A stretch of DNA of 43,950 nt from a virus (IMGVR_UViG_2778261535_000013:1-43950); one strand, 5' to 3'. Counted from the first letter of the stretch, positions 8,714-29,213 are shown. Translations and numbers: made by a program. The notes: generated by a model from the sequence alone, not told the origin.

Positions 8714-9450
8714 TTAAAGCGAGCGGATGCCCACGCTGACCAGATGTTCAGACAGATCCGGCTCCGGTTCACCACCATTGACCAGCATCCGGCTCATTGC
8801 TGTAAACATCGCAACAGGGCCGTCGATTTTGGCTTCCGGCGTGGATTTATTCGGGAAGATGTTGTCGTTTTTGTCCGGTTTTACCGTAACGTTAGACATC
8901 ATCCAGTTCATGACCGGATGATTGCTGTGATGGAAACGCCCGGCATAGACCAGTGATTCCGTTTCCTTCATGGCCTCTGACAGATTGCGAACCGTCTGCG
9001 GAACCTCCACCAGCGGTATCCCTTCTTCAGCCAGTGCCAGGCTGAACTGCATCGCGCTCCACGGGTCAAATCCCAGTTCCCTGAGGTTTTCACCACCAAT
9101 CCATTCCAGTAAGTCACTTTTTATCTGAGCATGATCGATAACATCACCATCCGTCAGAATCAGCTTATCCATCTCCGCCCACTTCCGGTAAAGTTCTGCC
9201 TGCTGCCGCGAGCATCGTTCCAGCCGTCCTTCCGGAAGCCAGAATTTAAAATCGGCATGAACATGCCCGTTATCCGTTCGCCAGAGTTTTGCCGCCGCAC
9301 AGATATCAATCTTATGAGCAAGGTCAACGCCGACCCACATGGGATACGTTTTCAGCTCATGTCGTGGGGCAATGTATTCGCACTTCTCCCACTTAATCAT
9401 GTCCATCCAGGCAGACTCTGCTGTTACCCACACATTCATGTGTTTGGTAA
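8714..9450 (-). pseudogene. terL: terminase large subunit, C-terminal (nuclease-domain) fragment of an interrupted gene
   Basis: 241 aa ORF begins …TKHMNVWVTAESAWMDM…; the frame is open upstream only to the insertion junction at 9450; it continues the N-terminal fragment at 24089-25116 when the insert is removed. Confidence 0.8.
9444..9450. repeat. att core copy (TTGGTAA) at left junction of the inserted element
   Basis: identical 7-mer at 24089-24095; joining left flank plus core plus right flank restores the terL reading frame. Confidence 0.6.
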
Positions 9451-9525
9451 GAATATTTCAAGTTTTTTAAAATCACCTGTATATCAATCGTTTAACATGA
9501 AAAAACAGTCTTTATAAATCATCAA

Positions 9526-9546
9526 GCAATACACAGCGCAATACAC
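9526..9546. repeat. GCAATACACAGCGCAATACAC, candidate integrase arm-type site (left arm)
   Basis: near-identical 21-mer (one mismatch) at 23938-23958 just inside the opposite end of the element. Confidence 0.4.
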
Positions 9547-9731
9547 GTATCTGTATTGTTTTAATGCTGATACACACCGTTTTTTGATACAGTGATTCGA
9601 CCTACCATCGCGAAGAATTTTTTATTTCTTGTGTGTAACAATCTGACGAGGTGAGCACTCAAAGAGATAAGAGGCAGTAGAAATTTCGATCCCCCCTGAA
9701 TGCAATTTTTCGTATATATATACAAAACAGC

Positions 9732-9885
9732 GCGGGTTATGCGGGTTAGCGGGTTATCTTCGCGTGCTAAGCATTTTTTACTCTTTAATATCAATAAGTT
9801 AAAAAAACAACGTATTTAAATATCAGCCAGAATATAACCCGCAAGACATTCAAAATAACCCGCAAACACCCCTCAAATAACCCGC
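9732..9885. repeat. iteron cluster A: three tandem GCGGGTTA(T/G) copies, an AT-rich spacer, and three inverted ATAACCCGC copies
   Basis: direct reading of the sequence; the same 9-mer recurs at 17572-17694. Confidence 0.55.
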
Positions 9886-9966
9886 AAAAACATCCCTGAA
9901 AGTGGGCGCTGGTAATACTGAAAATTTATTCCATTAAATGAGCATTGTCCTCTCTCATCCATTCCG

Positions 9967-11628
9967 TTACACACCATCAAACGCCGCAAGCCGCTCTTTG
10001 TGGCTGTCGCTCATATCGAATGCAAATTCCTCATGCTCTGCCTGGAATGTGCCAAACGCCATCAGCGCCGCAACGCTCGGGTCTATCTTGTTGGATGATT
10101 TTTTCTTGTTCGGCTTGATATTGGCGTTCGCGTCACTCTGCATCACAACATTACTCATTGACCAGGCCAACACCGGATCACCACGATGCACAATCACCTT
10201 CCGGTTAACAAAAACTTCGAACGATTTCGCCGCCGGACTGAAACGAAGATATGTTTGCGGGAACGGCTCCACCTCAAATCCTGCTCCCTGTAGCTGCGTC
10301 CTCAGGTGCGTGGCGTTCCATGTATCGAAGCCCACCAGCCTGATATTGAAATTCTCTGCATCCGCCATGATGTCATCACGGATACGGTCATAATCAATGC
10401 AGTCACCCGGTGTTGTGCGTATCCAGCCCGCCTTTACCCACTGGCGATAGATGGCGCGGTTTTTATTGGCGGGATTCTGTAGCTGAAATTCCGGCAGATA
10501 GTGACGGGAAACCAGCATAATCTTTTTACCGACCGGGAAGGCATAGCACACGCTGGAAATATCGCTGGTTGATGATAAGTCCAGCCCCGCGTAGCACTCC
10601 TGCCCGTATAAATCCGCCTCCGCGAACGTTCCGGCACACTCCGCCCATGCACCGTTACCCATCCACGGCGTAGCCCCCTGACACCAGATATTGAATCGCT
10701 TGGTGAGCATTTCCACCCACTGCGACGGAATACCCCGCGCTTTCTGGATGGTTGAGGCCAGTTTTTCACGATCGACGGAAACATCGATATTGGGATTCGC
10801 CTTTATCCACATCGCCGGATCGTCAACCTCGCTTTCATCATCCAGCTCGTAAATCAGCACGAACATGGATTCGTTCACCTCTTCACCATCCAGTATCTGG
10901 CAGCAATAGTCGTAGTGTTGTTTACAGGCTGAAACAACGTTGCTCCCCGATGTGGTGATGGCAAATAATACCCCCTCTGGACGCGCCCCCATTCCCAGTT
11001 CAAGCGCGGAATAAACCCCGTTGTCAGGGTGCAGGTGATATTCATCCACAATGGCAAGACTCGGGTTTTTCCCCTCAATGGTTGCCGCTTTTGCTGCCAG
11101 TGGCGTTAACAGGCTGTTGGTTTTCGGGTGTATCACCTTGTGCGCCTGAATATTTACCCGCTTTCGTAACGGTCGGGATAAAAGGCACATCTGACGCGCA
11201 TCATCAAACACGATCCGCGCCTGATCACGACTCACGGCGGCGGTGTAAATATCCTGCTGCCCGTTTTCCATAACCAGAAACCAGTTAGCTAGGATAGCGG
11301 CGACCGTGGATTTGGCATTTTTTCGCGGTACTTCAATGAATGCGCTGGTGTATTTGCGCCGTCCGGTGGCCTTAACCTTAAAGCCCAGGATGCAGGAAAA
11401 GGCGAACTGCTGCCACGGCTCCAGTTCAATGGGGCTACCGCGCATTGCGCCTTTTACGTGCGGACACACCCTGGAAAAGGCAATAAACCGCTCCACGACC
11501 TCCTGATCGAACGTGTAAAGGGGGTTTTCGAGGTCAGAAAAATATCGTTTAACGGCCTGTTTCAGTCGTTTACAGGCCGTAATTTTGCCGTTTTTTACGC
11601 CTTCTGCGTACTCATGCCAGGCGGTCAA
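9967..11628 (-). CDS. terminase large subunit (element-encoded)
   Basis: 553 aa with ATPase-like N-terminal and nuclease-like C-terminal regions; translationally coupled to the upstream TerS. Confidence 0.9.
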   Translation of the reverse strand: MTAWHEYAEGVKNGKITACKRLKQAVKRYFSDLENPLYTFDQEVVERFIAFSRVCPHVKGAMRGSPIELEPWQQFAFSCILGFKVKATGRRKYTSAFIEVPRKNAKSTVAAILANWFLVMENGQQDIYTAAVSRDQARIVFDDARQMCLLSRPLRKRVNIQAHKVIHPKTNSLLTPLAAKAATIEGKNPSLAIVDEYHLHPDNGVYSALELGMGARPEGVLFAITTSGSNVVSACKQHYDYCCQILDGEEVNESMFVLIYELDDESEVDDPAMWIKANPNIDVSVDREKLASTIQKARGIPSQWVEMLTKRFNIWCQGATPWMGNGAWAECAGTFAEADLYGQECYAGLDLSSTSDISSVCYAFPVGKKIMLVSRHYLPEFQLQNPANKNRAIYRQWVKAGWIRTTPGDCIDYDRIRDDIMADAENFNIRLVGFDTWNATHLRTQLQGAGFEVEPFPQTYLRFSPAAKSFEVFVNRKVIVHRGDPVLAWSMSNVVMQSDANANIKPNKKKSSNKIDPSVAALMAFGTFQAEHEEFAFDMSDSHKERLAAFDGV

Positions 11629-11968
11629 GCTCGTCCTCCTCCTCTGTTTCCGGTGGATTTCTGCGGCGGCTTACCGGGTCAAAACCCAGCAAAGAAGCCA
11701 TTTTGATCATTATTCTTTCCGCGTCAGCCTTTGCGCTCAGGGCGGGGTTTCTGCTCTCGCTGCCCTGACTGTTAACAATGCTGAAGCCGCGCGTCGCAAG
11801 GTCTTCGACGGCTTTGCGGTATATGGAGTAGTTAACGCAATACAGTTCCAGATTGCTCCAGTCGGCGGGGGTAAGGTCTTCCCGCCCGGAAAGCTGGCGC
11901 GATTTTTCCTTCCACTGCCTGACCGCGATTTCATCCAGGTAAGCGGGGGCTTTTGGTGGTCTTGCCAT
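11612..11968 (-). CDS. terminase small subunit, P27 family
   Basis: likely start MARPPKAPAYLDE… at 11968; the ORF track extends further upstream to 12109; directly upstream of TerL. Confidence 0.7.
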   Translation of the reverse strand: MARPPKAPAYLDEIAVRQWKEKSRQLSGREDLTPADWSNLELYCVNYSIYRKAVEDLATRGFSIVNSQGSESRNPALSAKADAERIMIKMASLLGFDPVSRRRNPPETEEEDELDRLA

Positions 11969-12256
11969 GTTCTTTTTTCGCCCAATTATTTTCAAAAAAA
12001 TTCCCGTGCACAAAAATTTGAGGAGGCGGTCGGTGTCCGGCAGGGACGGTTTTGTCCTGAAAACCTCCCCCACCCCCTCTGACGGCCTCACCAGCGATTG
12101 CGAAAACATTCCATGACCTCGCGGTCACGGTCGGTTAATTGCTTCGCTGTGGTGCGTTCTGTGCGCCCTGTCCTGTTGGCTTTGTGCCCTGTCTCCTGTG
12201 TCTTCCATAAGTCACGCTGCCTTATCAGTCCACGTATCAGCCTGTTTTGCTCCTGT

Positions 12257-12697
12257 TCAGTCATCATCGCCATACATCCAGTCGTTACGGTGTGCCGCCC
12301 GTTCTTCCTGCTCGCGATACATGCCCGCCTTACGGTTCGCTTTCGTGGCTGGATCTTCCCGTGTCGTCTTACGGTTGTGGCACGTCTGGCACAATGCCTG
12401 GTGATTCCACTCAGGCCAGAAGAGAACATCACCGCCGCCATTGATGGGAATGATGTGATCCACCACAAGAGCTGGCGTATAAATCCCCTTAGCCAGACAA
12501 CGCACGCATAACGGGTTTTTGCTCAGGTACAGGGCGCGGTATTTGTCCCACTGTCGGGAATACCCGCGCGCGCGGCGGTGTCCCCGTCTGGCATCCTCTG
12601 CACGCCATGCAGCCCGCCTGTGCTCTTCACACTTTCCGGACTTCACGCGCTTATTACAGCCCGGCTCAGTGCAGCGCCTTAATGGTTGCCACGGCAT
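12257..12697 (-). CDS. HNH endonuclease (packaging-associated)
   Basis: 146 aa with Cys-rich N-terminus and VVDHIIP…H…C HNH motif; positioned next to TerS. Confidence 0.8.
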   Translation of the reverse strand: MPWQPLRRCTEPGCNKRVKSGKCEEHRRAAWRAEDARRGHRRARGYSRQWDKYRALYLSKNPLCVRCLAKGIYTPALVVDHIIPINGGGDVLFWPEWNHQALCQTCHNRKTTREDPATKANRKAGMYREQEERAAHRNDWMYGDDD

Positions 12698-12996
12698 CAG
12701 TACACCCCCACATCACGATAAACCGACCAGAGCGCAGAAATAGCCATAGGCAGTTCAGACTGCTCCACAGGTGAAACCGCTTCCCTGTTCTCGTACAGGA
12801 AAGCGATGTACATCAGGCAACCAACACGTATTGCCGGGGTAAATTCCAGCCCGTCTTCAAAACGTTTCCCGATATGCTTCTGGCAGGCTTCCAGCGCCGC
12901 ATCGGTATACATTTTCAGAAGTTCGCCTTCTCCGGAAAAGTCATCAAGGCGAAGATGTGCCCTGACTTCATCAGGTGTAATTTTGTCTTCACTCAT
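12697..12996 (-). CDS. head-tail connector (gp6-like)
   Basis: likely start MSEDKITPDEVRAHLRLDDF… at 12996; similar in pattern to the resident gp6-like protein. Confidence 0.6.
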   Translation of the reverse strand: MSEDKITPDEVRAHLRLDDFSGEGELLKMYTDAALEACQKHIGKRFEDGLEFTPAIRVGCLMYIAFLYENREAVSPVEQSELPMAISALWSVYRDVGVY

Positions 12997-14203
12997 CTTT
13001 TTCACCTTTAATTTCCACAGTCTGCTTCCATGCCTGGCTGAACTCGTCGCCACCTTCACGCGGCGGCATTCCCTCACGCTCACGGGCTTCGTTCGGATTC
13101 ATGATCCCGTTCTTAATCCCTTTCTCATACGTGGCGTAACGTTCAGTAGGTGTGGCGCGCAGTAAATCGGCTGAATCAAACTCAACCAGATAACGGGTAC
13201 CAGGTACGGGAGAAGCCACCAGCAAAGCGGCCTTGATTTGCTGTTCGAAGTTCGCCAGCCACGGACGCATTGTCATAGTCAGAAACGCGCGGCTTGCCTC
13301 ACTGAAATTGCTGTAGGTGCTGTTGCTGTATTCCTGCAGAAAAATCGGCGACACGTTGAACATCCGGGCGATGTCTTCAATGGAGAAGCGACGGGAGGCC
13401 AGCCATTCCGCATCCTGGTTACTCATCCCCAGTTGCTTGTAATCCATGCCCCCTTCAAGGATTGGCGTTTTTCCGGCATTTTTCGCCCCCTTGTAGCGTT
13501 CCAGTGCGTCTAATGCCTGTTTACCTTTCACGCCGTCCAGCCATTCGCCTGACGTGATAATCCCTGCCGCCATCATGCCATCTTTCATAATGCTGGCTCC
13601 GTGACGCTGTTGAGCAAGGCCAAGCCCCAGCGCCTCACGGCAAATCGTGATGGGGGAGCGTCCCAGAAAGCCATCATCCGAGGCATAGCGGAGATGCAGA
13701 ACTTCTTCCTGTAAATACGTGCGCACCGTTCCTGTACAGGGTTCGGTGATGGTATAGCGGTATTTGTGTGCGCCTGTGCGTTCCGGTACAACACACCCCG
13801 GCGCATAAGGATGAAGTGATTTTGGCTGACCGTCCCGCCCCCATTCAATAACCGCATAGGCGTTACCGTTCAGCAGGCAGTGACGCATCATTGTGCGTTT
13901 AAACTGGTAAGGTGTCTGGCACGAATTAGGCTGCTCATTCAGCAGAATATCTACCGGATGACTGTCCAGCCATTCCCGCGCCTCCCTGCCCTTGTCATTA
14001 CGTACCAGATACAGATAACACGGCATCGTGGCCACCGCCTCAGCGATGACGGAAACCGCGTTCATCACTGCGGGCAATGATTCAGCCGTCCCGGCAGAAA
14101 CATATTCTCCGGATCCGGTATTCGGTACGCCGGACAGCACCAGAAAATCATCAATGGACAGGTTACGTTGCTCGCTTTTTTTACGACTAAAAGGCCACCA
14201 CAT
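12989..14203 (-). CDS. portal protein, HK97 family
   Basis: likely start MWWPFSRKK… at 14203, one nucleotide after the protease stop; the ORF track extends upstream to 14422 across the protease gene. Confidence 0.8.
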   Translation of the reverse strand: MWWPFSRKKSEQRNLSIDDFLVLSGVPNTGSGEYVSAGTAESLPAVMNAVSVIAEAVATMPCYLYLVRNDKGREAREWLDSHPVDILLNEQPNSCQTPYQFKRTMMRHCLLNGNAYAVIEWGRDGQPKSLHPYAPGCVVPERTGAHKYRYTITEPCTGTVRTYLQEEVLHLRYASDDGFLGRSPITICREALGLGLAQQRHGASIMKDGMMAAGIITSGEWLDGVKGKQALDALERYKGAKNAGKTPILEGGMDYKQLGMSNQDAEWLASRRFSIEDIARMFNVSPIFLQEYSNSTYSNFSEASRAFLTMTMRPWLANFEQQIKAALLVASPVPGTRYLVEFDSADLLRATPTERYATYEKGIKNGIMNPNEAREREGMPPREGGDEFSQAWKQTVEIKGEKDE

Positions 14204-14204
14204 A

Positions 14205-14765
14205 TCACAACCCCGCCAGCTCTGCCCAGCGATGACGATTATTTCCTGCCGGGCGTAATTCAGGGTGCTGTGCAAACAACGAACGGTGGGCAATCTCCAC
14301 GCCAGATTCGGGATAAGCAGGCATCGACGTGATCGTGATTTCCCTGAGTTCTGCAGCGGTAACAGTACGCAGATACGGTTTTTGCGCGATATTCCACTCT
14401 TCGCATAATGCGCGAAAGCCAAAGCTCATCCCTGTAATGTCGCCACGCTCCACCAGCGTAAGCACATCTTTTCCAAGCTGGGTATCAGGCGGTGTCAGTT
14501 CAAAACGTAGCCCGGTGTTGTCCTCAGTCAGTACCAGAGTGCCGGATTTGGTGCGCCCCAGCAGTTGGGTATAGTCATGCTCATACAGGCAGCGCACATC
14601 ATTACCCGCCGCCAGATAGTCAGCAAAAGCCCCCGGCGTGAACTGTTCGCGGAATTCGTCCCAGATAATTTCTGAAAGGCTGTTCCAGCGAACGGCATAC
14701 CCCACCAGCTTTTTATTGCTGGCGGTCAGTTCAGATGTGCGGATTTCAAAATCGGTGTTTTTCAT
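14205..14765 (-). CDS. prohead protease, HK97 family
   Basis: 186 aa; sequence pattern of HK97 prohead proteases; lies between capsid and portal genes. Confidence 0.85.
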   Translation of the reverse strand: MKNTDFEIRTSELTASNKKLVGYAVRWNSLSEIIWDEFREQFTPGAFADYLAAGNDVRCLYEHDYTQLLGRTKSGTLVLTEDNTGLRFELTPPDTQLGKDVLTLVERGDITGMSFGFRALCEEWNIAQKPYLRTVTAAELREITITSMPAYPESGVEIAHRSLFAQHPELRPAGNNRHRWAELAGL

Positions 14766-14819
14766 CGGTGTACTCCATAAAGCTGAAAAAGGAGGCCGCA
14801 GCCTCCTCCTTACTCATGA

Positions 14820-15989
14820 CTAGCCAGCTTTCATTTCCAGAATTTTGATGGCGTTTGAATCCACCACACCACCGCCCAGATATTTATCCGTGTGGACCTT
14901 GTAGAATCCGGGTTCAGTAATGTTGTCCGGTCGGGTGCGAATCCCTGTTACATGATCAACGATGAAATAACCACGACTGAAATCGCCAACCGCTAGCGGT
15001 GCTTTTCCTGCGCCGATGTCCGGCATGGACTCCAGGCAGAAAACAGGACGACCAAGCAACATATCCGGCGCACCTTCTTTAAGGCTGTCGCGCCAGATAT
15101 AATCGCCATTCTCATTTTTCAGCTTCTGTAGTGTCCCTGCCGTGCCCGAGTTCATCACCCAGACGGCATTTTTGCGGTATTTCGCTTTCAGCTTGTAGAG
15201 AATGTCGATCAGTTCGTCCGCTGTAATGGCGGTTCCACTTGCCGCTACCACTTTTTCAATGGTGCCAAAAGCGCGGGTTTTGTCACTGGTCGCCGCACGG
15301 GTGTAAGCCATGAAGCCTTTCGGCTTGCCGTTACCGTCGCCATTAACAAAATCATCCTCTTCGGTGCTGGCGAACGTGTCGGCAATTTCGGAGGATAACC
15401 AGCCCAAAATATCCACCTCTGAAAAATCCAGGATTTCCTGCGTGGTTTTCGGGTAGGCGTAGATCTGATTCAGCTTGATGGTTACACGTTCAATTTTCGG
15501 GGTGTTGGTTTCACTACGTGCGCTGCCTTCTGTGCCTCGTCCTACAGTTGCGCCGCCAGTGGAAACCAGTTTCTGAAACTCATTTGATTTTGCGGTCTTC
15601 ACGGTCGCGATCACGCGCATAACACTGTCATCCTGTAGCTGGCGCATGACTTCGCGATCAAGCTCAGGAATTACGGTATATCCGCCATCCCTGCCGCTGT
15701 CAGTGCTGGTGGACAGTGATCGCACATCTCCGGTTACGATGTAGTTACGCAATTCATCAGATGATAATTTCTGGATGCCCGTTCCTGGCTTGCTGCGTTC
15801 TTCATCAGCCACAGACTCGAGGCGGTAAATTTCTGTGTCGAGGGAATCGGCTTTTGCACGCAGTTCATCAAACTGTTTGCCCTCGTCATCGTTCAGGCTG
15901 CGGTTTTCACTGTCGGCTTTTTCCAGCAGGGATCGCATCTGGTTTTTCAGGGCGGTTTTTTGCTGGCGGAGTTCGATTAATTTCTTCAT
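14820..15989 (-). CDS. major capsid protein, HK97 family
   Basis: 389 aa; N-terminal coiled-coil region then capsid-fold sequence closely paralleling the resident capsid protein (…GDGNGKPKGF…). Confidence 0.9.
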   Translation of the reverse strand: MKKLIELRQQKTALKNQMRSLLEKADSENRSLNDDEGKQFDELRAKADSLDTEIYRLESVADEERSKPGTGIQKLSSDELRNYIVTGDVRSLSTSTDSGRDGGYTVIPELDREVMRQLQDDSVMRVIATVKTAKSNEFQKLVSTGGATVGRGTEGSARSETNTPKIERVTIKLNQIYAYPKTTQEILDFSEVDILGWLSSEIADTFASTEEDDFVNGDGNGKPKGFMAYTRAATSDKTRAFGTIEKVVAASGTAITADELIDILYKLKAKYRKNAVWVMNSGTAGTLQKLKNENGDYIWRDSLKEGAPDMLLGRPVFCLESMPDIGAGKAPLAVGDFSRGYFIVDHVTGIRTRPDNITEPGFYKVHTDKYLGGGVVDSNAIKILEMKAG

Positions 15990-16226
15990 GAAGGTTTTCT
16001 CGTATTGGTTAAGATTCAGGACGTGAAACCAACACGGAGGGAGCGCCGCCCGACACTCTCGGCATCTCGCAGATCAACCCGGCATCGCGCAGGGGGTCAG
16101 GCGGCATTGTGGCGGCTCACGTCTGAGTGCCACACGCCAACATATACATAAAAATCAGTATGTAAACATCAGCCAGAATCACCGAACAACCTGGAACAAC
16201 CACGAACAAATAATTTACAAAACCTG

Positions 16227-16255
16227 AAAAAAAGACCTGGAGAAAATCCAGGCCT
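16227..16255 (-). terminator. intrinsic terminator after the replication/accessory operon
   Basis: minus-strand stem CCTGGA/TCCAGG with loop, followed by TTTTTTT. Confidence 0.5.
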
Positions 16256-16263
16256 TTATCGCT

Positions 16264-16512
16264 TTATTGTTTCACTGGATCCCGCATTCTGCGTCTTATT
16301 TTCCACAGATATTCGATCATCGCTTCCACCTGCTCACGATTGGTTGCGAAAATTTCCCCGGTCAGTGAGCTGCGCAGAAAATCATGATGATCCACAACAA
16401 ACAACGCATCGGAAGAAAGCAGACGGCGATATTTTTTTGCTGTCGTGGTTTCCAGATCATCAAAACCATGAAACTTTTTATGTTGCTGGACTTCTTCAAA
16501 TGTCACTGGCAT
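16264..16512 (-). CDS. hypothetical protein
   Basis: 82 aa ORF overlapping the ProQ/FinO-like gene stop; no motif. Confidence 0.35.
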   Translation of the reverse strand: MPVTFEEVQQHKKFHGFDDLETTTAKKYRRLLSSDALFVVDHHDFLRSSLTGEIFATNREQVEAMIEYLWKIRRRMRDPVKQ

Positions 16513-17045
16513 GTATCCCCCTTTGCTGCCCGGCGCTGGCGCTTGTGCTTCTCATTCAGCGCCATCAGCCGCGTTTCTGCCTCCTGCTGTTCCTGTGGTG
16601 TCACTTCCCCACATGGCTGGCCTTTCAGGTCGTATCGTACCCCACCAGCAACCAGGGCGCGGTAATAGCGCGGAGACTGCGCATAAGATGCCAGCGTCGC
16701 ACGTAATGCCCCCGGCCCGAATGCCAGCCCCCTGACGGCGAGATCCTGCATCAGGTCGTCGAATATCCCCACCTTAAGCGGCTTCGGTGCTTCCCTGTTG
16801 AATAAGTCAGGCCACATCTCAGTGAGGCGGTTAACGCGCCTGCGGTTTTTGCGCTGGCGTTTGGTCATATGCCGCCACGGTGTCACCCCTGTGGGCTGCC
16901 CTTTGCGGCTCTGCTGTGCGTTCTGATTGCCGGGTATCACTTTATGCGCCGATGTGGTTTTATCCCGCTCTTGCGCCGCCTGCGTCGTTTTCTGCGGCGT
17001 GCCGTAAATGCCTTTCGGTTTTCGGTTAATGGTCAGCTTTGTCAT
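16503..17045 (-). CDS. ProQ/FinO-domain RNA-binding protein
   Basis: C-terminal region …WPDLFNREAPKPLKVGIFDDLMQDL…YAQSPRYYRAL…RYDLKGQPCGEVTPQE… aligns by eye with the ProQ N-terminal FinO domain; basic N-terminus. Confidence 0.7.
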   Translation of the reverse strand: MTKLTINRKPKGIYGTPQKTTQAAQERDKTTSAHKVIPGNQNAQQSRKGQPTGVTPWRHMTKRQRKNRRRVNRLTEMWPDLFNREAPKPLKVGIFDDLMQDLAVRGLAFGPGALRATLASYAQSPRYYRALVAGGVRYDLKGQPCGEVTPQEQQEAETRLMALNEKHKRQRRAAKGDTCQ

Positions 17046-17081
17046 GCCTTCCCCTGTAATTACTCTGTTCGCTGTTGTGAA

Positions 17082-17507
17082 TTAAAACTGTATGTTATCC
17101 CCGTACAGGTCATCGTGCTGGCCTGTCTGTTGTTTTGCCCTGTTCAGTGCGTCAGTGGCCTGCCCCTGTTGGCCTTTTTTGCCGCCCGGTCGCGCCGTTC
17201 TCGCACTGATTACGCTGTCTGCGATGACCTGCCAGCCCTGCCGCGTTTCGCCGTTCTGCCCTGTCCACTGGCTTACCTGCATGTTACCCGCCACGTTCAC
17301 CAGTTCGCCTTTGCGGTGTTTTGCCAGTGCGTCGGCCTGTCTGCCAAACGCCAGGACGGATAACCACATCGTCGCCGTTCCGTCATCTGCCTGGCTGCAT
17401 GGCAGGGGAACCGCCATACTCGCCATCGCCATTTGTGTTCCCTTGCTGGTGGTCTTTAACTGCGGGTCAGCCACCAGCCGCCCGTAAGCCGCTATCTGTG
17501 CTGTCAT
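17082..17507 (-). CDS. ssb: single-stranded DNA-binding protein
   Basis: 141 aa; N-terminal OB-fold-like sequence, Gly/Gln-rich linker and acidic C-terminal tail DDLYGDNIQF. Confidence 0.7.
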   Translation of the reverse strand: MTAQIAAYGRLVADPQLKTTSKGTQMAMASMAVPLPCSQADDGTATMWLSVLAFGRQADALAKHRKGELVNVAGNMQVSQWTGQNGETRQGWQVIADSVISARTARPGGKKGQQGQATDALNRAKQQTGQHDDLYGDNIQF

Positions 17508-17571
17508 GCTGTCTGCTCTCCGGTTTTAACGTTGATGGTTACGCTTGTTTACACCCTTACGGTGAAATTCT

Positions 17572-17694
17572 GCGGGTTATAATCGCACTTTTGCGGGTTA
17601 TAACTGCCGTTTTGCGGGTTACGTGCGGGTTATTGATTTCCTTTTTATTCATACAGTTAATGCACTTATATACATGATAACCCGCATAACCCGC
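17572..17694. repeat. iteron cluster B: four GCGGGTTA(T/C) copies, an AT-rich spacer, and two inverted ATAACCCGC copies; candidate origin
   Basis: direct reading; lies immediately downstream of the replication gene. Confidence 0.6.
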
Positions 17695-17717
17695 AACTTT
17701 TCACCTCACACAGGGGG

Positions 17718-19841
17718 TTAATCTTCTGCCTCAGGCTGGAACATCAGCACGTAAAAAACATGCTGCTTCCCCCCAATTTTGCCGAGCGCCTTTTTCTTGT
17801 AACGGCGATCGTTACCCGCTTCCAGCATTCCGGCAGCACTCAACGCGCGGGCAAAGTGAGACGGATTAAATCCCTGTGCTATCTCACCCTCAAATACATG
17901 CGGGAACGTGTAAAAACGGAACTCGTCATCTTCGTTTCTGATACTCCCCTTTCTGTATCCGGCAAGTTCTTTAATCGGTAAATCACGCTCGTCGGTATTG
18001 GGCCACGGAAGGTATCTGCTGAATCCGAACGACGCTAAAAAAGCTTCTGCCTGTTCAACCATCTGTTTAAATTCCCTGTTACCCGTGCCGAACTCCTTCA
18101 CCCAGGCATTAAAATTATGCTGTATGGCATCGCGGCATTCCTGCTCATCCCAGCCAGTAACATGACCTGAAAGCACAAGCGCGGCCTCCAGTATGGCAAA
18201 TCGCTCCCCCACACGGTGAACCTGTTCGCCGTAGCTCTCCGGTATCAGGTTGCGCCACCGCTCACGGCATGTCCTTACCGTGTCCTTTGCCTCCTGCTGG
18301 TGTTCTGCCAGCCATTTAACCCACTCACGACCCGCCGCCCCGTGATTTTCTGTCCAGGCATCCTTTAACGCGTCTGCGTGCGCCTTTCCGGTGCTGTATT
18401 CGTGAAATTGCGTGGCTTTTTCCATCGGAACGTTAAGCAGGCGGACAAGCTGCCCCGCTTTGACTTTTATCCCCTCCGTTTTGAGGAATGTCTCAACGTC
18501 CATTTCTCCGGTGCTGATTGCCACCGTGCGCCAGTGTTTGATCTCCCTGTTGCCGCCGTCCTTCGCCCCCTGTAATTTCCCCGAACCGTTAAACAGCGTA
18601 TAGGCTGACGTGGACACCTCCCGCGCGTTTCCGGCCTGGCCTATTTCATCCAGGGGTAAAAGCCCGTCATTGTGTGCCTCTGCTTCGTTGGCGATACCTA
18701 ACGCTGTGCCGTACCAGGTCAGCCGCTGCGCGTCCGGCTCTCCCCATAAACTTGATGCGATGTTCTGTGTGGTGGTTTTCCCTGCCGATGACTGTTCGAA
18801 AAGATGTACCCCGAAGCCGTCAGCGCCCACCAGCCCGATTAATGGTGCGGATAACGATACCGCCACACCCAGCATCATGGACGGATTACCACCAGCCAGC
18901 CGCGCAACGGTATCGCGCCAGCCCTCCGCCGTTCCTGCCACGGAATAGCCATTAACAGCAGCCGTTTTTCCGGTAAACAGGACTGGCTTTTCGCAATCAC
19001 CAATGACCGAACCGTCCGGCATGATGTACGCGCCAAAATGCCAGCCCGTTGTTGTGCTTAACTGCCATTCCTCATGGCTTCCGCTTAACTGCATCCAGTC
19101 AGCCAGGATAGCCCTGTATTTACCGTTGGTTGTTACGTTCAGTCCGTGGTCTTTCAGCAACCGCCAGCCGTCACGGTCGCCAATGCCACCGCACGGAACC
19201 GCCATTGTGATGACTTCATGGTTTGCTAATTTTTTCCAGCGCATCACGCGGTAATGCTCTTTACCGATTGTCCCCGTTCCCAGTAGTTCAAGCGGGGAAC
19301 ATAACCACGTCTCAGGCCGGATAATTTCGCCTGACTGCTTATCCACTTTTGGCGTTACCCAGAAAACACCATCGGCGCGACTTTCAACGCGGGGCTTTAA
19401 TTCATCATCGCCCTGGATTTCTGTGATTTTTTTCTTTAAGGGCAACACCAGACTTTCCCCGCGCTCGTATTCGTCTTTGAGGCGAGGCAACTGGTCGGAT
19501 AAATCCGCCGGGCTGATGTCAGTTATCCCCGCGTATTCGTATACGGTCTTCACGCCAGCCACAGCCAGCAACGTGACGATCTGTGTAAGGCTACGTTCAG
19601 TGATGTGCCCTGCGCGGTAAACACGCACACACTGACGGCTATCATCAATAATTTGATAACCGGTAATATCTTTCAGGTGTTCATCTGACAGAACGACAGG
19701 CGGCACATTGTCGGCGGCAATATGCTTACCTGCCCATTCCTGCCACTCTTTCGCATGGCTCCACGCATCACTACCCGCAAAGATGATAACCTCCGTCATT
19801 TTGTCGGCTGGCTGGTGCTTTAAGTTTGGTGCGCGCTTCAT
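17718..19841 (-). CDS. replication protein, primase-helicase-like, with Walker A motif
   Basis: 707 aa; GxxxxGKT (…EQSSAGKTTT…); size and position beside the iterons match PICI/P4-type replication proteins. Confidence 0.65.
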   Translation of the reverse strand: MKRAPNLKHQPADKMTEVIIFAGSDAWSHAKEWQEWAGKHIAADNVPPVVLSDEHLKDITGYQIIDDSRQCVRVYRAGHITERSLTQIVTLLAVAGVKTVYEYAGITDISPADLSDQLPRLKDEYERGESLVLPLKKKITEIQGDDELKPRVESRADGVFWVTPKVDKQSGEIIRPETWLCSPLELLGTGTIGKEHYRVMRWKKLANHEVITMAVPCGGIGDRDGWRLLKDHGLNVTTNGKYRAILADWMQLSGSHEEWQLSTTTGWHFGAYIMPDGSVIGDCEKPVLFTGKTAAVNGYSVAGTAEGWRDTVARLAGGNPSMMLGVAVSLSAPLIGLVGADGFGVHLFEQSSAGKTTTQNIASSLWGEPDAQRLTWYGTALGIANEAEAHNDGLLPLDEIGQAGNAREVSTSAYTLFNGSGKLQGAKDGGNREIKHWRTVAISTGEMDVETFLKTEGIKVKAGQLVRLLNVPMEKATQFHEYSTGKAHADALKDAWTENHGAAGREWVKWLAEHQQEAKDTVRTCRERWRNLIPESYGEQVHRVGERFAILEAALVLSGHVTGWDEQECRDAIQHNFNAWVKEFGTGNREFKQMVEQAEAFLASFGFSRYLPWPNTDERDLPIKELAGYRKGSIRNEDDEFRFYTFPHVFEGEIAQGFNPSHFARALSAAGMLEAGNDRRYKKKALGKIGGKQHVFYVLMFQPEAED

Positions 19842-20152
19842 TTTGCCTTTCCCCGTTCACGAATAATTTCACGTACTGCCTTAATGCGTTCCATTCCTGT
19901 AACGCGCATGATTCTGTCGATGTCGCTTAATTCTGCTGGTGGTGCTTTACTTACCAAGGTGAACTCCCTGTCAAAGCGCATATGTGACGACACGCAGGGA
20001 TGCGCATAACCTTCGCGGATATAGGTCACACGAAAATCATCGACGGTTTTGATCGTTATCGTGCTGCCGTATTTATCCTGGAAAATATCGCCGGGGCGGA
20101 TTTCAGGCCGAGCGGGGCCGCTGGCAGTAAAGCCAGAATTTTTCTTTTTCAT
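19838..20152 (-). CDS. hypothetical protein
   Basis: 104 aa ORF, stop overlaps the replication gene start. Confidence 0.4.
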   Translation of the reverse strand: MKKKNSGFTASGPARPEIRPGDIFQDKYGSTITIKTVDDFRVTYIREGYAHPCVSSHMRFDREFTLVSKAPPAELSDIDRIMRVTGMERIKAVREIIRERGKAK

Positions 20153-20157
20153 GTTTT

Positions 20158-20406
20158 TTACTCCAGAGGCAGCTTTTTAGCGGCGAGCTCAATATCAGAT
20201 GTCAGAGAAACCTGTGTATTTGCCAGGTCTAACAACAAAGAAATAAGAATTTCTTCTCTGCTATCGGATTTATCGGTGCTAAGGCTGTTCATCCACATAT
20301 TGACGACTTCCCTGATTTTTTTCGCAGAGTGCAGGGCTTCAAATGCCAGGTCTTCAATATCATGTTTATTTCGCATAATCGCCCCCGCCATTTTCACAAT
20401 CAGCAA
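20158..20406 (-). CDS. hypothetical protein
   Basis: 82 aa ORF; true start uncertain. Confidence 0.35.
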   Translation of the reverse strand: MLIVKMAGAIMRNKHDIEDLAFEALHSAKKIREVVNMWMNSLSTDKSDSREEILISLLLDLANTQVSLTSDIELAAKKLPLE

Positions 20407-20611
20407 TCAGGATGGCTTTTGCCTCATTCAGCGCCGTATCAGCACTAAATTGCATGACAGCCAGTGAGTGAGGAACGAAAGCCCCGGCATATTCTGTTTC
20501 GCTGGTGGCGTGCTTATGCGCCTTGTCTGCGATAACAGAAATATCAATCAGCGCGTGCATCAGCGTTCTGATGGCTTCGGCGGCTGCGTCCGGACGGGTG
20601 TTATTACACAT
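20366..20611 (-). CDS. hypothetical protein
   Basis: 81 aa ORF; its ATG overlaps the stop of the upstream 67-aa ORF (ATGTGTAA) with AGGAGG RBS. Confidence 0.4.
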   Translation of the reverse strand: MCNNTRPDAAAEAIRTLMHALIDISVIADKAHKHATSETEYAGAFVPHSLAVMQFSADTALNEAKAILIADCENGGGDYAK

Positions 20612-20807
20612 GGCGTACCTCCTGACGAATACGGGCAGTAAATACCATCACGCAGCCGGCCGGGGATTGCTGGCGGGCTTCCTGTTCGCTGGTGGCCTCA
20701 ATGGTAATCACGCGCGGCTTAGCCGTGCTCAGGGCGATAAAACGCCAGATGTATTTATTCAGGTTGTGCGAGTCCCGCCCTTTCGGGTGTGTGGTATGAT
20801 TTAACAT
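20604..20807 (-). CDS. hypothetical small protein (67 aa), first gene of the leftward operon
   Basis: ATG at 20807 with RBS; corresponds to the C-terminal 67 codons of a long low-complexity ORF-track entry that is otherwise implausible. Confidence 0.4.
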   Translation of the reverse strand: MLNHTTHPKGRDSHNLNKYIWRFIALSTAKPRVITIEATSEQEARQQSPAGCVMVFTARIRQEVRHV

Positions 20808-20904
20808 AGCTACCTCGATACTTTCGCTATCGTTGGTGGTTAGAAGCCCCGTTACTGCTCCAACAGTGCGGGGTTTCGTCGTTTCTGCACCTTGCATAAA
20901 CAAG

Positions 20905-20985
20905 GTGTAAGACACAATGTAAAGCAGCAGTGTCTTACACGTCAATCCTTCAAAATAATTTTTTTTCGTGTATATTGTCTTACAC
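20905..20985. promoter_or_regulatory. divergent promoter region with three copies of operator GTGTAAGACAC / GTGTCTTACAC
   Basis: inverted pair at 20905-20915 and 20930-20940, third copy at 20976-20985 overlapping a TATATT -10-like hexamer about 30 nt upstream of the RHH gene. Confidence 0.5.
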
Positions 20986-21006
20986 CAAAAACATAAGGAG
21001 TTAGAC

Positions 21007-21186
21007 ATGGCAACAGGTCCAAAGAATGCAAAATCACAATCTGTAACTGCACGTATTGCCCATGAAATTATTGAAGGCATGGAAAAAGTGAAAGAAGAAG
21101 GCGAAAGTACAGGGCAGTTTATAAGCGCAGCCATGCGTGGCGAGATCAAACGCCGCCAGCGCCGCAAGGCCAAAGAGCAGGAGTAA
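21007..21186 (+). CDS. small ribbon-helix-helix-like regulator
   Basis: 59 aa from ATG 21007 (MATGPKNAKSQSVTARIAHEIIEGMEK…) with GGAG RBS; sequence pattern compatible with RHH/CopG-type DNA-binding proteins. Confidence 0.45.
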   Translation: MATGPKNAKSQSVTARIAHEIIEGMEKVKEEGESTGQFISAAMRGEIKRRQRRKAKEQE

Positions 21187-21243
21187 CCATCACCAGCGCC
21201 GTGGTGAGAGTAACTACGGCGCATTGCTATGCAGGTGCTTACC

Positions 21244-21423
21244 ATGAACGATAAAGAGTTAAAAAAAACACCACCACAAACACGGAAAGGACAGCGCAAA
21301 AAGATAGCGCATGAGCATGAATCAGAAAGATTCGCCCCCTGTGCGTTTGCTCTTGAGAAATTCCTTAAGGAGCACAAGAAAAAGCTATCATTGCAAACCT
21401 GGGAACGAACCGAATCTGACTGA
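21244..21423 (+). CDS. hypothetical small basic protein
   Basis: 59 aa from MNDKELKK… downstream of the RHH gene; no motif. Confidence 0.3.
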   Translation: MNDKELKKTPPQTRKGQRKKIAHEHESERFAPCAFALEKFLKEHKKKLSLQTWERTESD

Positions 21424-21516
21424 TCAAATTGCCCACCAGCCAGCAAATCGCTATGATGTTCGGGCTTATGTTTAGTGTTTTCCCATTGGCGACCGCCCCC
21501 GGTCGCCTTTGTTTTG

Positions 21517-22095
21517 TCACTGAATGCAGTTGTCAAAGTAAAACTCAGGCTGATATTCACGTATCAGCCTTTTTTCTTCTTCCTCCAGTTCACGCTTTTT
21601 GCGCTTACAGGCCTGTAGCTCCCTCCCCTTCTCACTGGCACTTATTTGATATTGCTCTTTACGGCGGGAAAAATCCTGCAATGCGCCCCACGGGATACCA
21701 TAAGCCCCTGTCTTTCTGATACCTGGTATCACATTCCTGAATACCCAGTTACTGAAACGATGAGCAAATGTGCCAGGCGTCGTTGCTTTGCGGCTGCGGG
21801 CTATTAGTTTGTAGAAACCTGACTCAGAGATAATGCTCATATTCTGATTTCCTCCGGGGGTGTAAGTTAAATTTACTCCCTTTTCATCATCATCAAGCAT
21901 CTGCAACGCCGTACGCGAATTGGTCAGTTCCAGCGCAGCGCAAACATCCTTTGCAACAAACCACGGATCGCCGTTCAGATACACCACGCGAACGTTCACA
22001 CCATCAAAGCGCAGAACGACCAGATCACGAATATCACAGAATTTTTTCACATGACGTGCGTCACCCTTGCCCGTCACGGCAATATTTTTATTCAT
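21517..22095 (-). CDS. Bro-N domain protein (antirepressor-like)
   Basis: …GDPWFVAKDVCAALELTNSRTALQMLDDDEK… matches the conserved Bro-N core. Confidence 0.7.
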   Translation of the reverse strand: MNKNIAVTGKGDARHVKKFCDIRDLVVLRFDGVNVRVVYLNGDPWFVAKDVCAALELTNSRTALQMLDDDEKGVNLTYTPGGNQNMSIISESGFYKLIARSRKATTPGTFAHRFSNWVFRNVIPGIRKTGAYGIPWGALQDFSRRKEQYQISASEKGRELQACKRKKRELEEEEKRLIREYQPEFYFDNCIQ

Positions 22096-22152
22096 CGCTT
22101 TCTACCTCACATACAAAAAACCCCGCATTGCGTGGTGCGGGGTTGTCGGTAA

Positions 22153-22431
22153 TTACTTATTGGCGTTTTTGTATGGGCTGTTTACTTCCTTTACTCCTGG
22201 CGGATGCATAACCCACCAGAGCACATCAGAGAGCAACCAGGAAACAGACACTTTCCCTAAATGAGCACGAGCAGGAAATGCTCCCTCCTGTTCAAGTACC
22301 CAACGTCTGCTTCTTGAAAGCCCGGTACGATTGGCACACTCATGTTCGCGTATACGGCGATCATACGGTTCGCCATGCTCTTTCAGAATCTGAATGCGTT
22401 CTTCGGGTGTAGGATAAATAAATTTTTGCAT
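22153..22431 (-). CDS. AlpA-family regulator (excisionase-like)
   Basis: likely start MQKFIYPTPEE… at 22431; …TGLSRSRRWVLEQEGAFPARAHLGKVSVSWLLSDV… matches the AlpA HTH pattern. Confidence 0.65.
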   Translation of the reverse strand: MQKFIYPTPEERIQILKEHGEPYDRRIREHECANRTGLSRSRRWVLEQEGAFPARAHLGKVSVSWLLSDVLWWVMHPPGVKEVNSPYKNANK

Positions 22432-22494
22432 AAAAATATCACCTATAAAAAAACCCGCCAAAAGACGGGTTGATTATATCTCATTTAATTTAGC

Positions 22495-22728
22495 TCAGGG
22501 TTTCCATTCACCCTTTACCCATTCCAGCACCTCAGATAAGCGCCAGACTTTTGTTTGTGGGCCAATACATATTTTTCGTGGAAATTTTCCTTCCTTTTCA
22601 AGTAACGATCTGTGTCTCCTGCCAAGAGCAGTTAACCATGCACATTCATCTTCCTTAATCATCCTGTCGATTGTTTTATCATTTTCAAGTTCTTCACGCG
22701 TAACTATTTGAATCATTACCATCACCAC
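22495..22728 (-). CDS. AlpA-family regulator (second copy)
   Basis: …LLEKEGKFPRKICIGPQTKVWRLSEVLEWV… matches the AlpA pattern; immediately downstream of the integrase gene. Confidence 0.6.
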   Translation of the reverse strand: MVMVMIQIVTREELENDKTIDRMIKEDECAWLTALGRRHRSLLEKEGKFPRKICIGPQTKVWRLSEVLEWVKGEWKP

Positions 22729-23917
22729 TAATTAGCTTATTCAGGTAGTCGTACCACCAGTTCATAGCTTCTTTTTTTCTGTCCATATACTGGCTTCTGT
22801 TATAAACCCCGGCAACACCGCCTAATGTGTGCCCAAGCAACTGTTCAACCACATTATGTTCAAAACCATGATCACTTAGCTTTGTGGCAAACACTCTTCG
22901 CATATCATGCGCCGTCCATTTCTCCGAGTGTTTCATCCTTTTCCATGTCTTACCGATAGTTACGCTTGCCGTACACTGACGCATATCAAACCCAATCACA
23001 TTTTCTTTGTTACCTGTTATTTTTTTTAACGTAACTAACCAGTTAAACATGCCATCAGGAATCGGTCTGATTATTTCCCTGCCATTTTTGCTATGATCAG
23101 CGGGAACGCGCCATAATTTCTTATCAAAATCCCACTCTCCCCAGGAGGACAGTAATACTTCTGACAGTCGGCAACCAAAAACTACCAGGAAACGTAAAAT
23201 AATTCGGTTTTCATATGATAATTCGTGATTGTCATAATCAGTATTAATACTTCGCCATAAATCTCTGATTTCATCATCTGTTAAAACCCTGCTTCTTCGC
23301 GCAGACTTTTTTCCCACATCACAGACCTCAAGATCATCAATTTCATGACTAATCGCGTATTTTCTTACCCGACAAAATTTAAGCGCCTGTTTTGATATAC
23401 GCAATAAAGCTCCGGCCTGTACAGGTGCTACTTTTTTTATTTTGTCAAAGCACTTGATCCACATAGATATTGAGCAATCACTAAGTGGTACATGACCAAT
23501 CACCGGATAAATATGTTTACCAAAGCACTGCCTGATATGTTCTGCTCCCCTACGCTTATCCATTGCATAATTATCAAGCCAGTATTCAAGCGCCTCACGA
23601 ACGGTAACAGGTTGCAAGGTGGCTTCCCGTTCAATTTTTATCTGAATCCGTGGATCTCTGCCCTCCGCAAGCCAGGTTCGACACTGATCGCGCATCTCTC
23701 TCGCTGATTTGAGACTCAGATCAGGATATTTTCCAAGTGTCAGCCAGATGGGCGCGGTTCCCCTTCCCGCCAGTCTGTAAAAGAAAACAAAACTAACACA
23801 TCCGTATTTACTGACCCGTACCGAAAGCCCGTTACCATCAGCGATGGTTTCCTGCCTCTCACTCCTGCGCCCAAGCAGGGAACGAAGTTTTTTATCGCTC
23901 AGTTTGTTTAGCGCCAT
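22694..23917 (-). CDS. int: tyrosine integrase, P4-type
   Basis: likely start MALNKLSDKKLRSLLG… at 23917; C-terminal catalytic region …HDMRRVFATKL…LLGHT…YNRSQY; adjacent to the right junction. Confidence 0.9.
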   Translation of the reverse strand: MALNKLSDKKLRSLLGRRSERQETIADGNGLSVRVSKYGCVSFVFFYRLAGRGTAPIWLTLGKYPDLSLKSAREMRDQCRTWLAEGRDPRIQIKIEREATLQPVTVREALEYWLDNYAMDKRRGAEHIRQCFGKHIYPVIGHVPLSDCSISMWIKCFDKIKKVAPVQAGALLRISKQALKFCRVRKYAISHEIDDLEVCDVGKKSARRSRVLTDDEIRDLWRSINTDYDNHELSYENRIILRFLVVFGCRLSEVLLSSWGEWDFDKKLWRVPADHSKNGREIIRPIPDGMFNWLVTLKKITGNKENVIGFDMRQCTASVTIGKTWKRMKHSEKWTAHDMRRVFATKLSDHGFEHNVVEQLLGHTLGGVAGVYNRSQYMDRKKEAMNWWYDYLNKLISGDGNDSNSYA

Positions 23918-23937
23918 GTGATTTATAACCCGTTTTT

Positions 23938-23958
23938 GCAATACACAGTGCAATACAC
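23938..23958. repeat. GCAATACACAGTGCAATACAC, candidate integrase arm-type site (right arm)
   Basis: matches 9526-9546 with one mismatch; 20-40 nt upstream of the int start codon. Confidence 0.4.
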
Positions 23959-24088
23959 AAATGATGAAAACAGCCAGAACCTTCCAGAAAAAACAAAAAC
24001 GACGAACAAGAAAAAATCTTTTTCTTTCATTTGGTTACTAAAAAAATCAGGACAGGCCGCACTGTTGTTACGGCGTGATGTTACGTTC

Positions 24089-24095
24089 TTGGTAA
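24089..24095. repeat. att core copy (TTGGTAA) at right junction of the inserted element
   Basis: identical to 9444-9450. Confidence 0.6.
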
Positions 24096-28407: not shown

Positions 28408-28490
28408 TGGACCGTCACCGGGGACTCGAACCCCGCACCACAAAACAACAATACGTGTTATGCACTCTTACCCGATGAGTTAGTGACGGT
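28408..28490 (-). tRNA. tRNA-like gene with non-canonical anticodon arm (possible GUA anticodon), may be a pseudo-tRNA
   Basis: perfect acceptor stem CCGTCAC/GTGACGG, T-arm CGGGG-TTCGAGT-CCCCG and CCA end, but the anticodon arm only folds as ATAAC-ACGTATT-GTTGT with C at position 33. Confidence 0.45.
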
Positions 28491-28745: not shown

Positions 28746-28771
28746 AAAAAAAAACCGCCTGCTAAGGCGGT
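28746..28771 (-). terminator. intrinsic terminator downstream of the tRNA cluster
   Basis: minus-strand stem ACCGCC/GGCGGT followed by a long T-run. Confidence 0.5.
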
Positions 28772-29135: not shown

Positions 29136-29210
<75 letters not shown>

Positions 29211-29213
29211 ATA

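Follow-up and report, generated by a model that had tools for sequence, protein, structure and literature searches.

A ProQ/FinO-domain gene in the replication zone of a capsid-forming, helper-embedded phage satellite of Escherichia coli

Bacterial RNA chaperones fall into three major classes, one of which is formed by the FinO-domain proteins. Here, we describe the gene of such a protein on the viral DNA stretch IMGVR_UViG_2778261535_000013:1-43950, whose whole length of 43,950 nucleotides is referred to as the window. The window is an E. coli lambdoid prophage with DicF, a sok/hokD locus, a tRNA cluster, Q, RusA and lysis genes, and its terminase gene terL is interrupted by a phage satellite. 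The FinO-domain gene lies in the replication zone of this satellite, between the gene of an SSB protein and a small gene termed orf82 (Table 1).

The FinO-domain protein and its predicted RNA-contact surface

A Shine-Dalgarno-like sequence, GGGGAAGG, is located immediately 5' of the ATG of the gene. The preliminary description of the stretch had compared the open reading frame (ORF) by eye with the FinO domain of ProQ, based on the three strings KPLKVGIFDDL, YAQSPRYYRAL and RYDLKGQPCGEV, which are all present in the translation. Its assignment of the ORF to the ProQ/FinO family is borne out by the sequence profile, by a search of the sequences of solved structures and by the predicted fold. 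The profile search against the family was named there as the check, and the lack of a significant match as the refuting outcome. The match is in fact highly significant: residues 68-172 align with positions 5-108 of the 109 in the Pfam ProQ/FinO profile (PF04352), at 87.2 bits (gathering cutoff 27) and E=9.2e-25. It is the only domain found by Pfam, and the protein ends 8 residues past the match, at residue 180. With the ORF as query, the Protein Data Bank (PDB) sequences retrieved were ProQ (5nb9, E=6e-12), FinO (1dvo, E=3e-11), NMB1681, a Legionella ProQ homologue and RocC. The resemblance to the FinO domain is far beyond chance.

An AlphaFold2 model of the protein was built from 25 homologues; its confidence score (pLDDT) is about 90 over residues 60-175, and residues 1-54 are predicted to be disordered. 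The model displays a helical core and a beta-hairpin, flanked by N- and C-terminal helices. Helices are predicted at residues 62-77, 94-105, 111-122 and 125-133, followed by the beta-hairpin at 136-147 and the C-terminal helix at 150-177. When the model was compared with the PDB by Foldseek, the top 26 matches were all FinO-domain structures with a probability of 1.0, while the next match had E>1.

The first of the predicted helices corresponds to the basic stretch TKRQRKNRRRINRL, which leads into the FinO core. Further upstream, the N-terminal peptide, with the consensus MTxLTINRKPKGIY, is nearly invariant in the 25 homologues and is followed by a variable, Q-rich disordered linker; a shorter variant at one locus (L014) is without this peptide. 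Over codons 1-12 of the gene, the proportions of non-synonymous and synonymous differences (pN and pS) are 0.09 and 0.43, respectively. Therefore, the constraint on the N-terminus acts on the protein, not on an overlapping nucleotide element. The gene as a whole is under purifying selection, since the ratio of non-synonymous to synonymous rates (dN/dS) is 0.19-0.43 against seven homologues, in all pairs with estimable dS.

The residues of the FinO domain that contact RNA have been studied in two systems. Mutagenesis of E. coli ProQ showed that K35, D41, K54, R58, Y70, L71, R80 and D82 are required for RNA binding (PMC7192607). In the crystal structure of RocC with a terminator, Tyr87, Arg97 and the turn at Gly52 form the pocket for the 3'-terminal nucleotide and its 3'-OH, and the N-cap with Arg75 reads the backbone of the hairpin (PMC9674577). 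In the HMMER alignment, ProQ K35, D41, R58, Y70, R80 and D82 correspond to K91, D97, R115, Y127, R137 and D139 of the satellite protein, respectively, all of which are identical; G37 corresponds to G93, and L71 to Y128. Except for that of K54, the equivalents of the ProQ positions are invariant or at least 90% conserved in the 25 homologues. The residues of the RocC binding model are all kept too, that is, Y127, R137, G93 and R115 align with RocC Y87, R97, G52 and R75, respectively. On its own, ProQ's FinO domain requires a terminator hairpin with four or more U residues after it (PMC7367173). By analogy, we infer that the satellite protein recognises the same type of RNA end as the ProQ FinO domain.

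Then, could the protein be a known member of the family? With FinO of the F-like plasmids (1dvo), it has in common the FinO domain (30% identity over 100 residues, pairwise E=3e-15, Foldseek probability 1.0), a basic, largely disordered N-terminal extension and a helix ahead of the core, the lack of an additional C-terminal domain, and a gene carried by a mobile element. However, it reaches 64.7 bits against NCBIfam NF010317, where the subfamily cutoff is 136, and the two N-terminal regions are without significant similarity. In addition, the gene resides in a phage satellite and not at the distal end of an F-type tra operon, no FinP-like RNA or other Rfam match occurs in the island, and FinO is plasmid-borne, whereas all 1649 copies of the present clade in E. 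coli are chromosomal. A proposed N-terminal motif common to the protein and F-like FinO, LT[LI]xRKxxG, was supported by neither BLAST nor MAFFT and is unproven.

ProQ is the best sequence match in the PDB and has the six identical RNA-binding residues mentioned above. However, the score against its NCBIfam equivalog model NF003434 is 58.6 bits, with a cutoff of 127, and the satellite protein has an N-terminal extension that is not found in ProQ, while the linker and the C-terminal (Tudor-like) domain of ProQ are missing. RocC of Legionella and NMB1681, the minimal ProQ of Neisseria, are the top structural matches, with target-normalised TM-scores up to 0.85, but they are chromosomal competence regulators or global RNA binders from other phyla or classes, with identities of 26-33%.

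FopA (YafB), encoded on the IncI1 plasmids pCol1B9 and R64, is likewise a FinO-domain protein of a mobile element. Its N-terminal region is basic, it lacks a ProQ-type C-terminal domain, and it assists the antisense RNA Inc, which controls the replication initiator (PMC7491321). By analogy, FopA-Inc is the closest functional parallel to a FinO-domain gene in a replication zone. However, the FopA homologue of R64, recognised by the diagnostic Tyr146 and Arg157, gives 27 bits and 30% identity over 83 residues. The satellite protein is not an orthologue of FopA, because FopA is more distant from it than FinO or ProQ. Judging from these comparisons, it is an orthologue of none of FinO, ProQ and FopA, and belongs to a small enterobacterial clade on chromosomal islands.

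The satellite, its replication operon and related islands

Table 1. Features of the satellite and of its FinO-domain gene (positions are those of the window)
Feature	Position	Strand	Description
Whole satellite, about 14.65 kb	9444..24095	-	Inside prophage terL; from Pfam and the RefSeq annotation of identical or near-identical loci
Intrinsic terminator	16232..16256	-	10-bp stem, U7 tail, A-rich 5' flank; closes the DUF4222-primase-SSB-FinO-orf82 operon
orf82	16264..16512	-	PHROG 1957 (unknown function), E=2e-36
FinO-domain protein gene	16503..17045	-	Intact ORF, ATG start, TGA stop, 180 aa; RefSeq WP_000164226.1, "ProQ/FINO family protein"
FinO domain core	16530..16844	-	Residues 68-172; Pfam envelope and AlphaFold model
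Basic stretch TKRQRKNRRRVNRL	16815..16865	-	Residues 61-77; alignment and model
N-terminal peptide MTKLTINRKPKGIYG	17001..17045	-	Opens the disordered Q-rich extension, residues 1-54
SSB gene	17082..17507	-	141 aa, C-terminal tip ...GDNIQF; Pfam SSB, E=7.7e-16; TIGR00621
Iteron-like tandem repeats, core TGCGGGTTAT	17568..17609	.	In the 210-bp primase-SSB spacer; repeat search family D3
DUF927 primase/helicase gene	17718..19841	-	707 aa; Pfam DUF927, E=6e-46; PHROG 1139 "DNA primase", E=3e-173
DUF4222 gene	19838..20152	-	Overlaps the start of the primase gene; Pfam DUF4222
Structured leader of the Icd-like/replication operon	20790..20912	-	Fold z=-3.3; 35-nt hairpin at 20843-20877

The preliminary description had placed the FinO-domain gene on a satellite, and the element is indeed a capsid-forming phage-inducible chromosomal island (cf-PICI) in a helper-embedded (HE-PICI) layout. 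A 7-bp TTGGTAA core is present at both island ends (9444-9450 and 24089-24095), and terL is cut in two: the N-terminal fragment, at 23923-25116, contains the TerL_ATPase domain and the beginning of the nuclease domain, and the C-terminal one is at 8714-9439. The gene order begins with int, two alpA genes, Bro-N, a divergent YlcI/YnfO gene and the Icd-like gene, continues with DUF4222, the DUF927 primase/helicase, the iteron spacer, SSB, FinO, orf82 and the terminator, and ends with the major capsid protein, prohead protease, portal, connector, HNH, TerS and TerL. All of these genes are on the minus strand except YlcI/YnfO, which is on the plus strand. The published characteristics of cf-PICIs are all present, that is, a length of 10-18 kb, an integrase and AlpA, a replication module, and a capsid-to-TerL set of their own; no tail or lysis gene was found in the island by Pfam or RefSeq annotation. 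Helper-embedded PICIs have been described by Tommasini, Mageeney and Williams, with 14 integration sites including a terminase site, the A:Terminase_1 group (PMC10111431). Like them, the present island is integrated in a late gene of a prophage and co-oriented with it, as read here from the sequence, and it has the four zones of Gram-negative PICIs, namely Integration, Bro, Replication and Late (PMC10111431).

The SSB gene, which the preliminary description had noted next to the FinO-domain gene, ends 36 nucleotides upstream of it on the same strand. On the other side, the ATG of orf82 overlaps the stop codon of the FinO-domain gene by 10 nucleotides, and the two genes are apparently translationally coupled. 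It has been considered whether orf82 encodes a PerC-like protein, but it resembles neither PerC nor the 138-aa protein that stands in its place in other islands, and there is no Pfam match. The terminator following orf82 has a dG of -14.3 in the ViennaRNA-based scan and a fold z of -3.4; it was overlooked by the consensus promoter/terminator scan. A role as a component of a defence system was also considered and rejected, since PADLOC gave no match for FinO, orf82, SSB, primase or DUF4222. Judging from their position, the iterons likely form the replication origin; mapped PICI origins co-localise with primase and SSB genes (PMC10111431). The TGCGGGTTAT core occurs again, inverted, at 9853-9891 (repeat family D5), just downstream of the island terL near the attachment (att) end.

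Is the FinO-domain gene a constant companion of the replication genes or of the capsid genes? The most abundant homologue (P0050, 71% identical) is found in islands with the same int-AlpA-...-DUF4222-DUF927-SSB-FinO-small-ORF order, where three large unannotated genes are present as cargo in place of the capsid genes. Other homologues follow a primase of the D5/Pox_D5 type, with or without SSB; they are found in classical PICI-like islands of E. coli and Citrobacter, usually with a PerC-family gene as neighbour. Among nine loci compared by tblastn, FinO co-occurs with DUF4222 in all nine, with the Icd-like gene in seven, with SSB in six and with a primase of either type in eight. Capsid and packaging genes are found only in the lineage of the present island, and the integrases are 25-41% identical. 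The FinO-domain gene belongs to the replication zone, not to the capsid module, because it follows either primase type, with or without SSB, and occurs elsewhere without capsid genes.

Some further observations were made on the cargo of these islands. The commonest type of FinO-bearing island (loci L005-L008, about 10560-17910) has three large co-oriented genes replacing the capsid module; their products, of 837-843, 600-686 and 824-918 aa, contain no Pfam domains, and the set is possibly an uncharacterised defence or accessory system. In a FinO-bearing PICI of Citrobacter (L009, 14184-15963), the cargo comprises a GmrSD_N protein and a HEPN (MAE_28990 / RiboL-PSP) protein, likely an anti-phage pair.

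A profile search of 1.84 billion representative proteins returned 4441 FinO-domain clusters at E<=1e-3, and because only 19 of them are retained at E<=1e-30, the specific clade is a small one. All homologues in the databases belong to Escherichia, Shigella, Salmonella and Citrobacter, and carry the NCBI name "ProQ/FINO family protein". By blastn, relatives were found in 1168 of 5426 complete E. coli genomes, with 1649 copies in total, up to 9 per genome and all of them chromosomal; a copy with at least 80% nucleotide identity is present in 281 of these genomes. A wider scan of genome contigs gave two loci only, in E. ruysiae and E. albertii. As for a plasmid or phage origin, PLSDB gave only distant FinO-type matches and INPHARED seven distant matches, and no megablast match of the island DNA was found among phages. 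Degraded pathogenicity-island backbones, near afa/dra, fec, hlyE or sul2, hold the distant FinO copies at L012 and L018-L021; YagK/YfjJ, AlpA-type and H-NS-like genes are their neighbours, and two of the copies are pseudogenes.

Several other features of the satellite and its helper prophage were recorded. The interruption of terL falls in the codons for F-T-K, and the N-terminal TerL fragment continues reading into island sequence. A 22-nucleotide sequence is present twice, at 16158-16179 and 9812-9833 (GTATGTAAACATCAGCCAGAAT / GTATTTAAATATCAGCCAGAAT); one copy shares bases with a promoter-like site upstream of the capsid gene, and the other, downstream of the island terL, points towards att, or towards int in the circular form. 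It may be a common regulatory or packaging site. On the plus strand, an unannotated basic ORF of 64 codons (21230-21424) lies 3' of ylcI and is followed by a very strong terminator (21484-21511, z=-7.8); in EC416, a 100% identical strain, IS1414 is inserted in this ORF/terminator interval. A match of 100% identity was also obtained in strain 2014C-3075. Between the divergent Icd-like and ylcI/ynfO promoters, at 20904-20987, the operator-like sequence GTGTCTTACAC and its inverse occur in three copies, which are probably binding sites of the island repressor. In the helper prophage, the tRNA cluster, the sok/hokD type I toxin-antitoxin locus and the DicF small RNA are found at 28408-29445, 32357-32531 and 38795-38846; the cluster has four genes (Gly, Thr, Lys, Met) plus a weaker tRNA-Val call made by ARAGORN only.

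Proposed function and candidate RNA partners

On balance, we consider it probable that the protein is a FinO-domain RNA binder, made together with the replication proteins, that acts on terminator-ended transcripts of the satellite. The part concerning the domain and RNA binding is held with greater confidence than the account as a whole. The FinO-domain gene is the penultimate gene of an operon that runs from the Icd-like gene through DUF4222, primase, iterons and SSB to orf82. Because of this position, the protein would be produced with the replication proteins on induction of the satellite, or else through helper late transcription reading into the embedded island. Since the pocket for the 3' nucleotide and the N-cap are conserved, it is suggested that the protein, like RocC, FinO and ProQ, clamps the base of an intrinsic-terminator hairpin and the 3'-OH oligo-U tail. 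Additional affinity or strand-annealing activity would probably come from the basic N-terminal extension and the long C-terminal helix, as it does from the flanking regions of FinO. Satellite transcripts with such terminators would then be stabilised or paired, which would alter the level or timing of replication- and late-zone expression.

Potential ligands are at hand in the island. Its canonical terminators with U tails number at least five and agree with the requirements of the N-terminal domain of ProQ (PMC7367173); five of them are at 16232-16256, 14791-14806, 22452-22471, 22119-22144 and 21484-21511. The first of these, which closes the replication operon, is the nearest candidate for a FinO-type ligand. 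Strong terminators analogous to it follow the FinO/small-ORF pair in L005, L006, L009 and L010.

However, several results weigh against this account. No RNA partner of the protein was identified. Rfam, searched with gathering thresholds over the window, has no match within the island, and a search at E<=1 over 9400-24200 gave none either, including FinP, C4, isrK and int-alpA RNA. The preliminary description had called for a search of the element for cis-antisense RNAs. It was carried out with the consensus promoter/terminator scan and, on both strands of ten loci, with the ViennaRNA terminator scan, and yielded no promoter-terminator pair that was convincing or conserved; the promoter scan gave no more sites than shuffled controls. 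There is no local trough in synonymous change along the FinO-domain gene, and P111 is present at the position of ProQ K54, a difference from ProQ in an RNA-binding residue. In addition, the timing of expression is deduced from gene order. Finally, distant and more numerous copies lie outside replication modules, in degraded islands, and some are frameshifted or truncated pseudogenes; the function is perhaps not tied to replication, because these distant copies sit outside any replication module.

Two kinds of candidate RNA element were rejected. Weak antisense hairpins occur in coding sequence, for example at 20121-20136 (DUF4222 5' end) and 17105-17126 (SSB 3' end), and they are not taken as evidence because no promoter matches them. 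An RNA element overlapping the FinO-domain gene was ruled out, since synonymous divergence is even along the gene. It should be noted that the hairpin at 17105-17126, about 60 nucleotides upstream of the FinO start, has a counterpart in L004 (7918-7945), where its pairing is kept via a double change from A-T to G-C. One substitution of the pair is non-synonymous (Leu to Pro), and a comparison of two sequences is no proof.

The leader of the Icd-like/replication operon deserves attention here, as it is a candidate regulatory RNA at the position that isrK and C4 occupy in other FinO-bearing islands. At least three kinds of leader cassette exist. In the first, the 35-nucleotide hairpin is identical in the window, in L009 (5804-5838) and in L010 (4089-4123), and the FinO proteins of these three islands are 56-71% identical. 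In the second, another hairpin allele is common to L003 (4093-4128) and L006 (5379-5414). The third consists of isrK and the C4 antisense RNA, in L004 (4236-4424), L014 (15186-15376) and L017 (9282-9470). The first two cassettes match no Rfam family, and for the icd leader this holds even at E<=10. They may be unrecognised variants of immunity RNAs, such as those reported in the Bro zones of PICIs (PMC10111431), and by analogy the alleles look like interchangeable immunity-RNA cassettes of the P4/P1 type.

Could the protein be a dedicated matchmaker, in the manner of FinO and FopA, for a single regulatory RNA encoded by the satellite, through which the icd-primase operon would be controlled? 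An immunity or leader RNA like P4 CI or P1 C4, located upstream of that operon, would then be its partner, or else a cis-antisense RNA, and the control would resemble that of FopA-Inc on repZ or FinO-FinP on traJ. The precedents for such matchmakers are all on mobile elements (PMC9977716, PMC7491321), which speaks for this explanation, as do the strong structure of the leader (z=-3.3), the hairpin that stays identical in spite of the divergence of the FinO proteins, with its second allele in two other islands, the presence of isrK and C4 at the same position in three further FinO-bearing islands, and the Bro-zone immunity RNAs. However, the hairpin has no U tail, and RNAs of the P4/P1 type are processed, whereas the pocket reads the 3' end of a terminator (PMC9674577). 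The cassettes are tied to the FinO protein only in that they belong to the same element. In addition, C4/isrK are found in just three of about ten FinO-positive PICI-type loci, and not in this island; no conserved antisense promoter-terminator pair was found; and many PICIs have such leaders with no shown link to FinO. A single dedicated RNA partner is considered unlikely.

The RNA-contact surface is generic and near that of ProQ, which also fits a protein that binds host or helper RNAs broadly, competing with ProQ or mimicking it at terminator 3' ends. The stability of helper and host transcripts, for example Sok and DicF, encoded in the same prophage, would thereby be shifted in favour of the satellite. 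The ProQ regulon includes many prophage, island and toxin-antitoxin RNAs (PMC9977716), sok/hokD and DicF are present in the helper prophage, and intact copies of the gene persist in degraded islands without a replication module, as would fit a host-directed function. Nevertheless, the protein ends at residue 180, without the linker and C-terminal domain of ProQ, and the fact that its gene is closely linked to primase and SSB in intact satellites points to a part in the cycle of the element itself. Such a broad activity is decidedly improbable, and action on the satellite's own terminator-ended transcripts is preferred.

We know of no FinO-domain protein that acts on replication intermediates, and this counts against a function in replication itself. 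It is very improbable that the protein works with SSB and primase on RNA primers, R-loops or single-stranded DNA hairpins and not in regulation: the gene directly follows the origin-like iterons and SSB, SSB is adjacent in six of the nine compared loci and also in L017, and the family is pervasively associated with DNA metabolism (review: PMC9977716), but SSB is absent from the FinO-bearing L003, L009 and L016, and a ribose 3'-OH terminus is what the conserved pocket specifically recognises (PMC9674577).

What is known and what the finding would mean

The domain assignment is already in RefSeq, and the present finding is a correct annotation at the level of the domain. FinO-domain genes on plasmids and phages have been recognised in reviews (PMC9977716), and a ProQ/FinO-like gene was given a one-line annotation among the accessory genes of an Enterobacter cloacae PICI in 2026 (PMC13612085), the single mention encountered for PICIs. 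A ProQ/FinO gene is mentioned neither in the papers on cf-PICIs and HE-PICIs and their supplements nor in the supplements of the PICI survey. The recurrence of the clade as a part of the replication zone in enterobacterial PICIs appears to be unreported.

To our knowledge, every member studied on a mobile element, that is, FinO and FopA, controls a key decision of the element via one antisense RNA, and the biology of PICIs has so far been described almost wholly via proteins, such as AlpA, Rpp and those of capsid redirection. A FinO-domain gene recurring in the replication zone of PICIs would be a sign of an RNA layer, so far unexplored, in the interplay of satellite, helper and host. Relatives are present in about one-fifth of complete E. 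coli genomes, some of them in multiple copies, and the additional FinO-type proteins would compete for terminator 3' ends in the cytoplasm of ProQ. The system is experimentally tractable, because induction assays exist for both cf-PICIs and HE-PICIs.

A bolder proposal, which we regard as quite doubtful, is that satellites carry a FinO-domain chaperone of their own as a regular part of the replication zone, working with an unrecognised satellite RNA, for example the leader/immunity cassette. If so, control of the satellite's induction, replication and late switch would be exerted at the RNA level and would require a dedicated protein as cofactor, and this would be a protein-assisted version of RNA immunity of the P4/P1 type.

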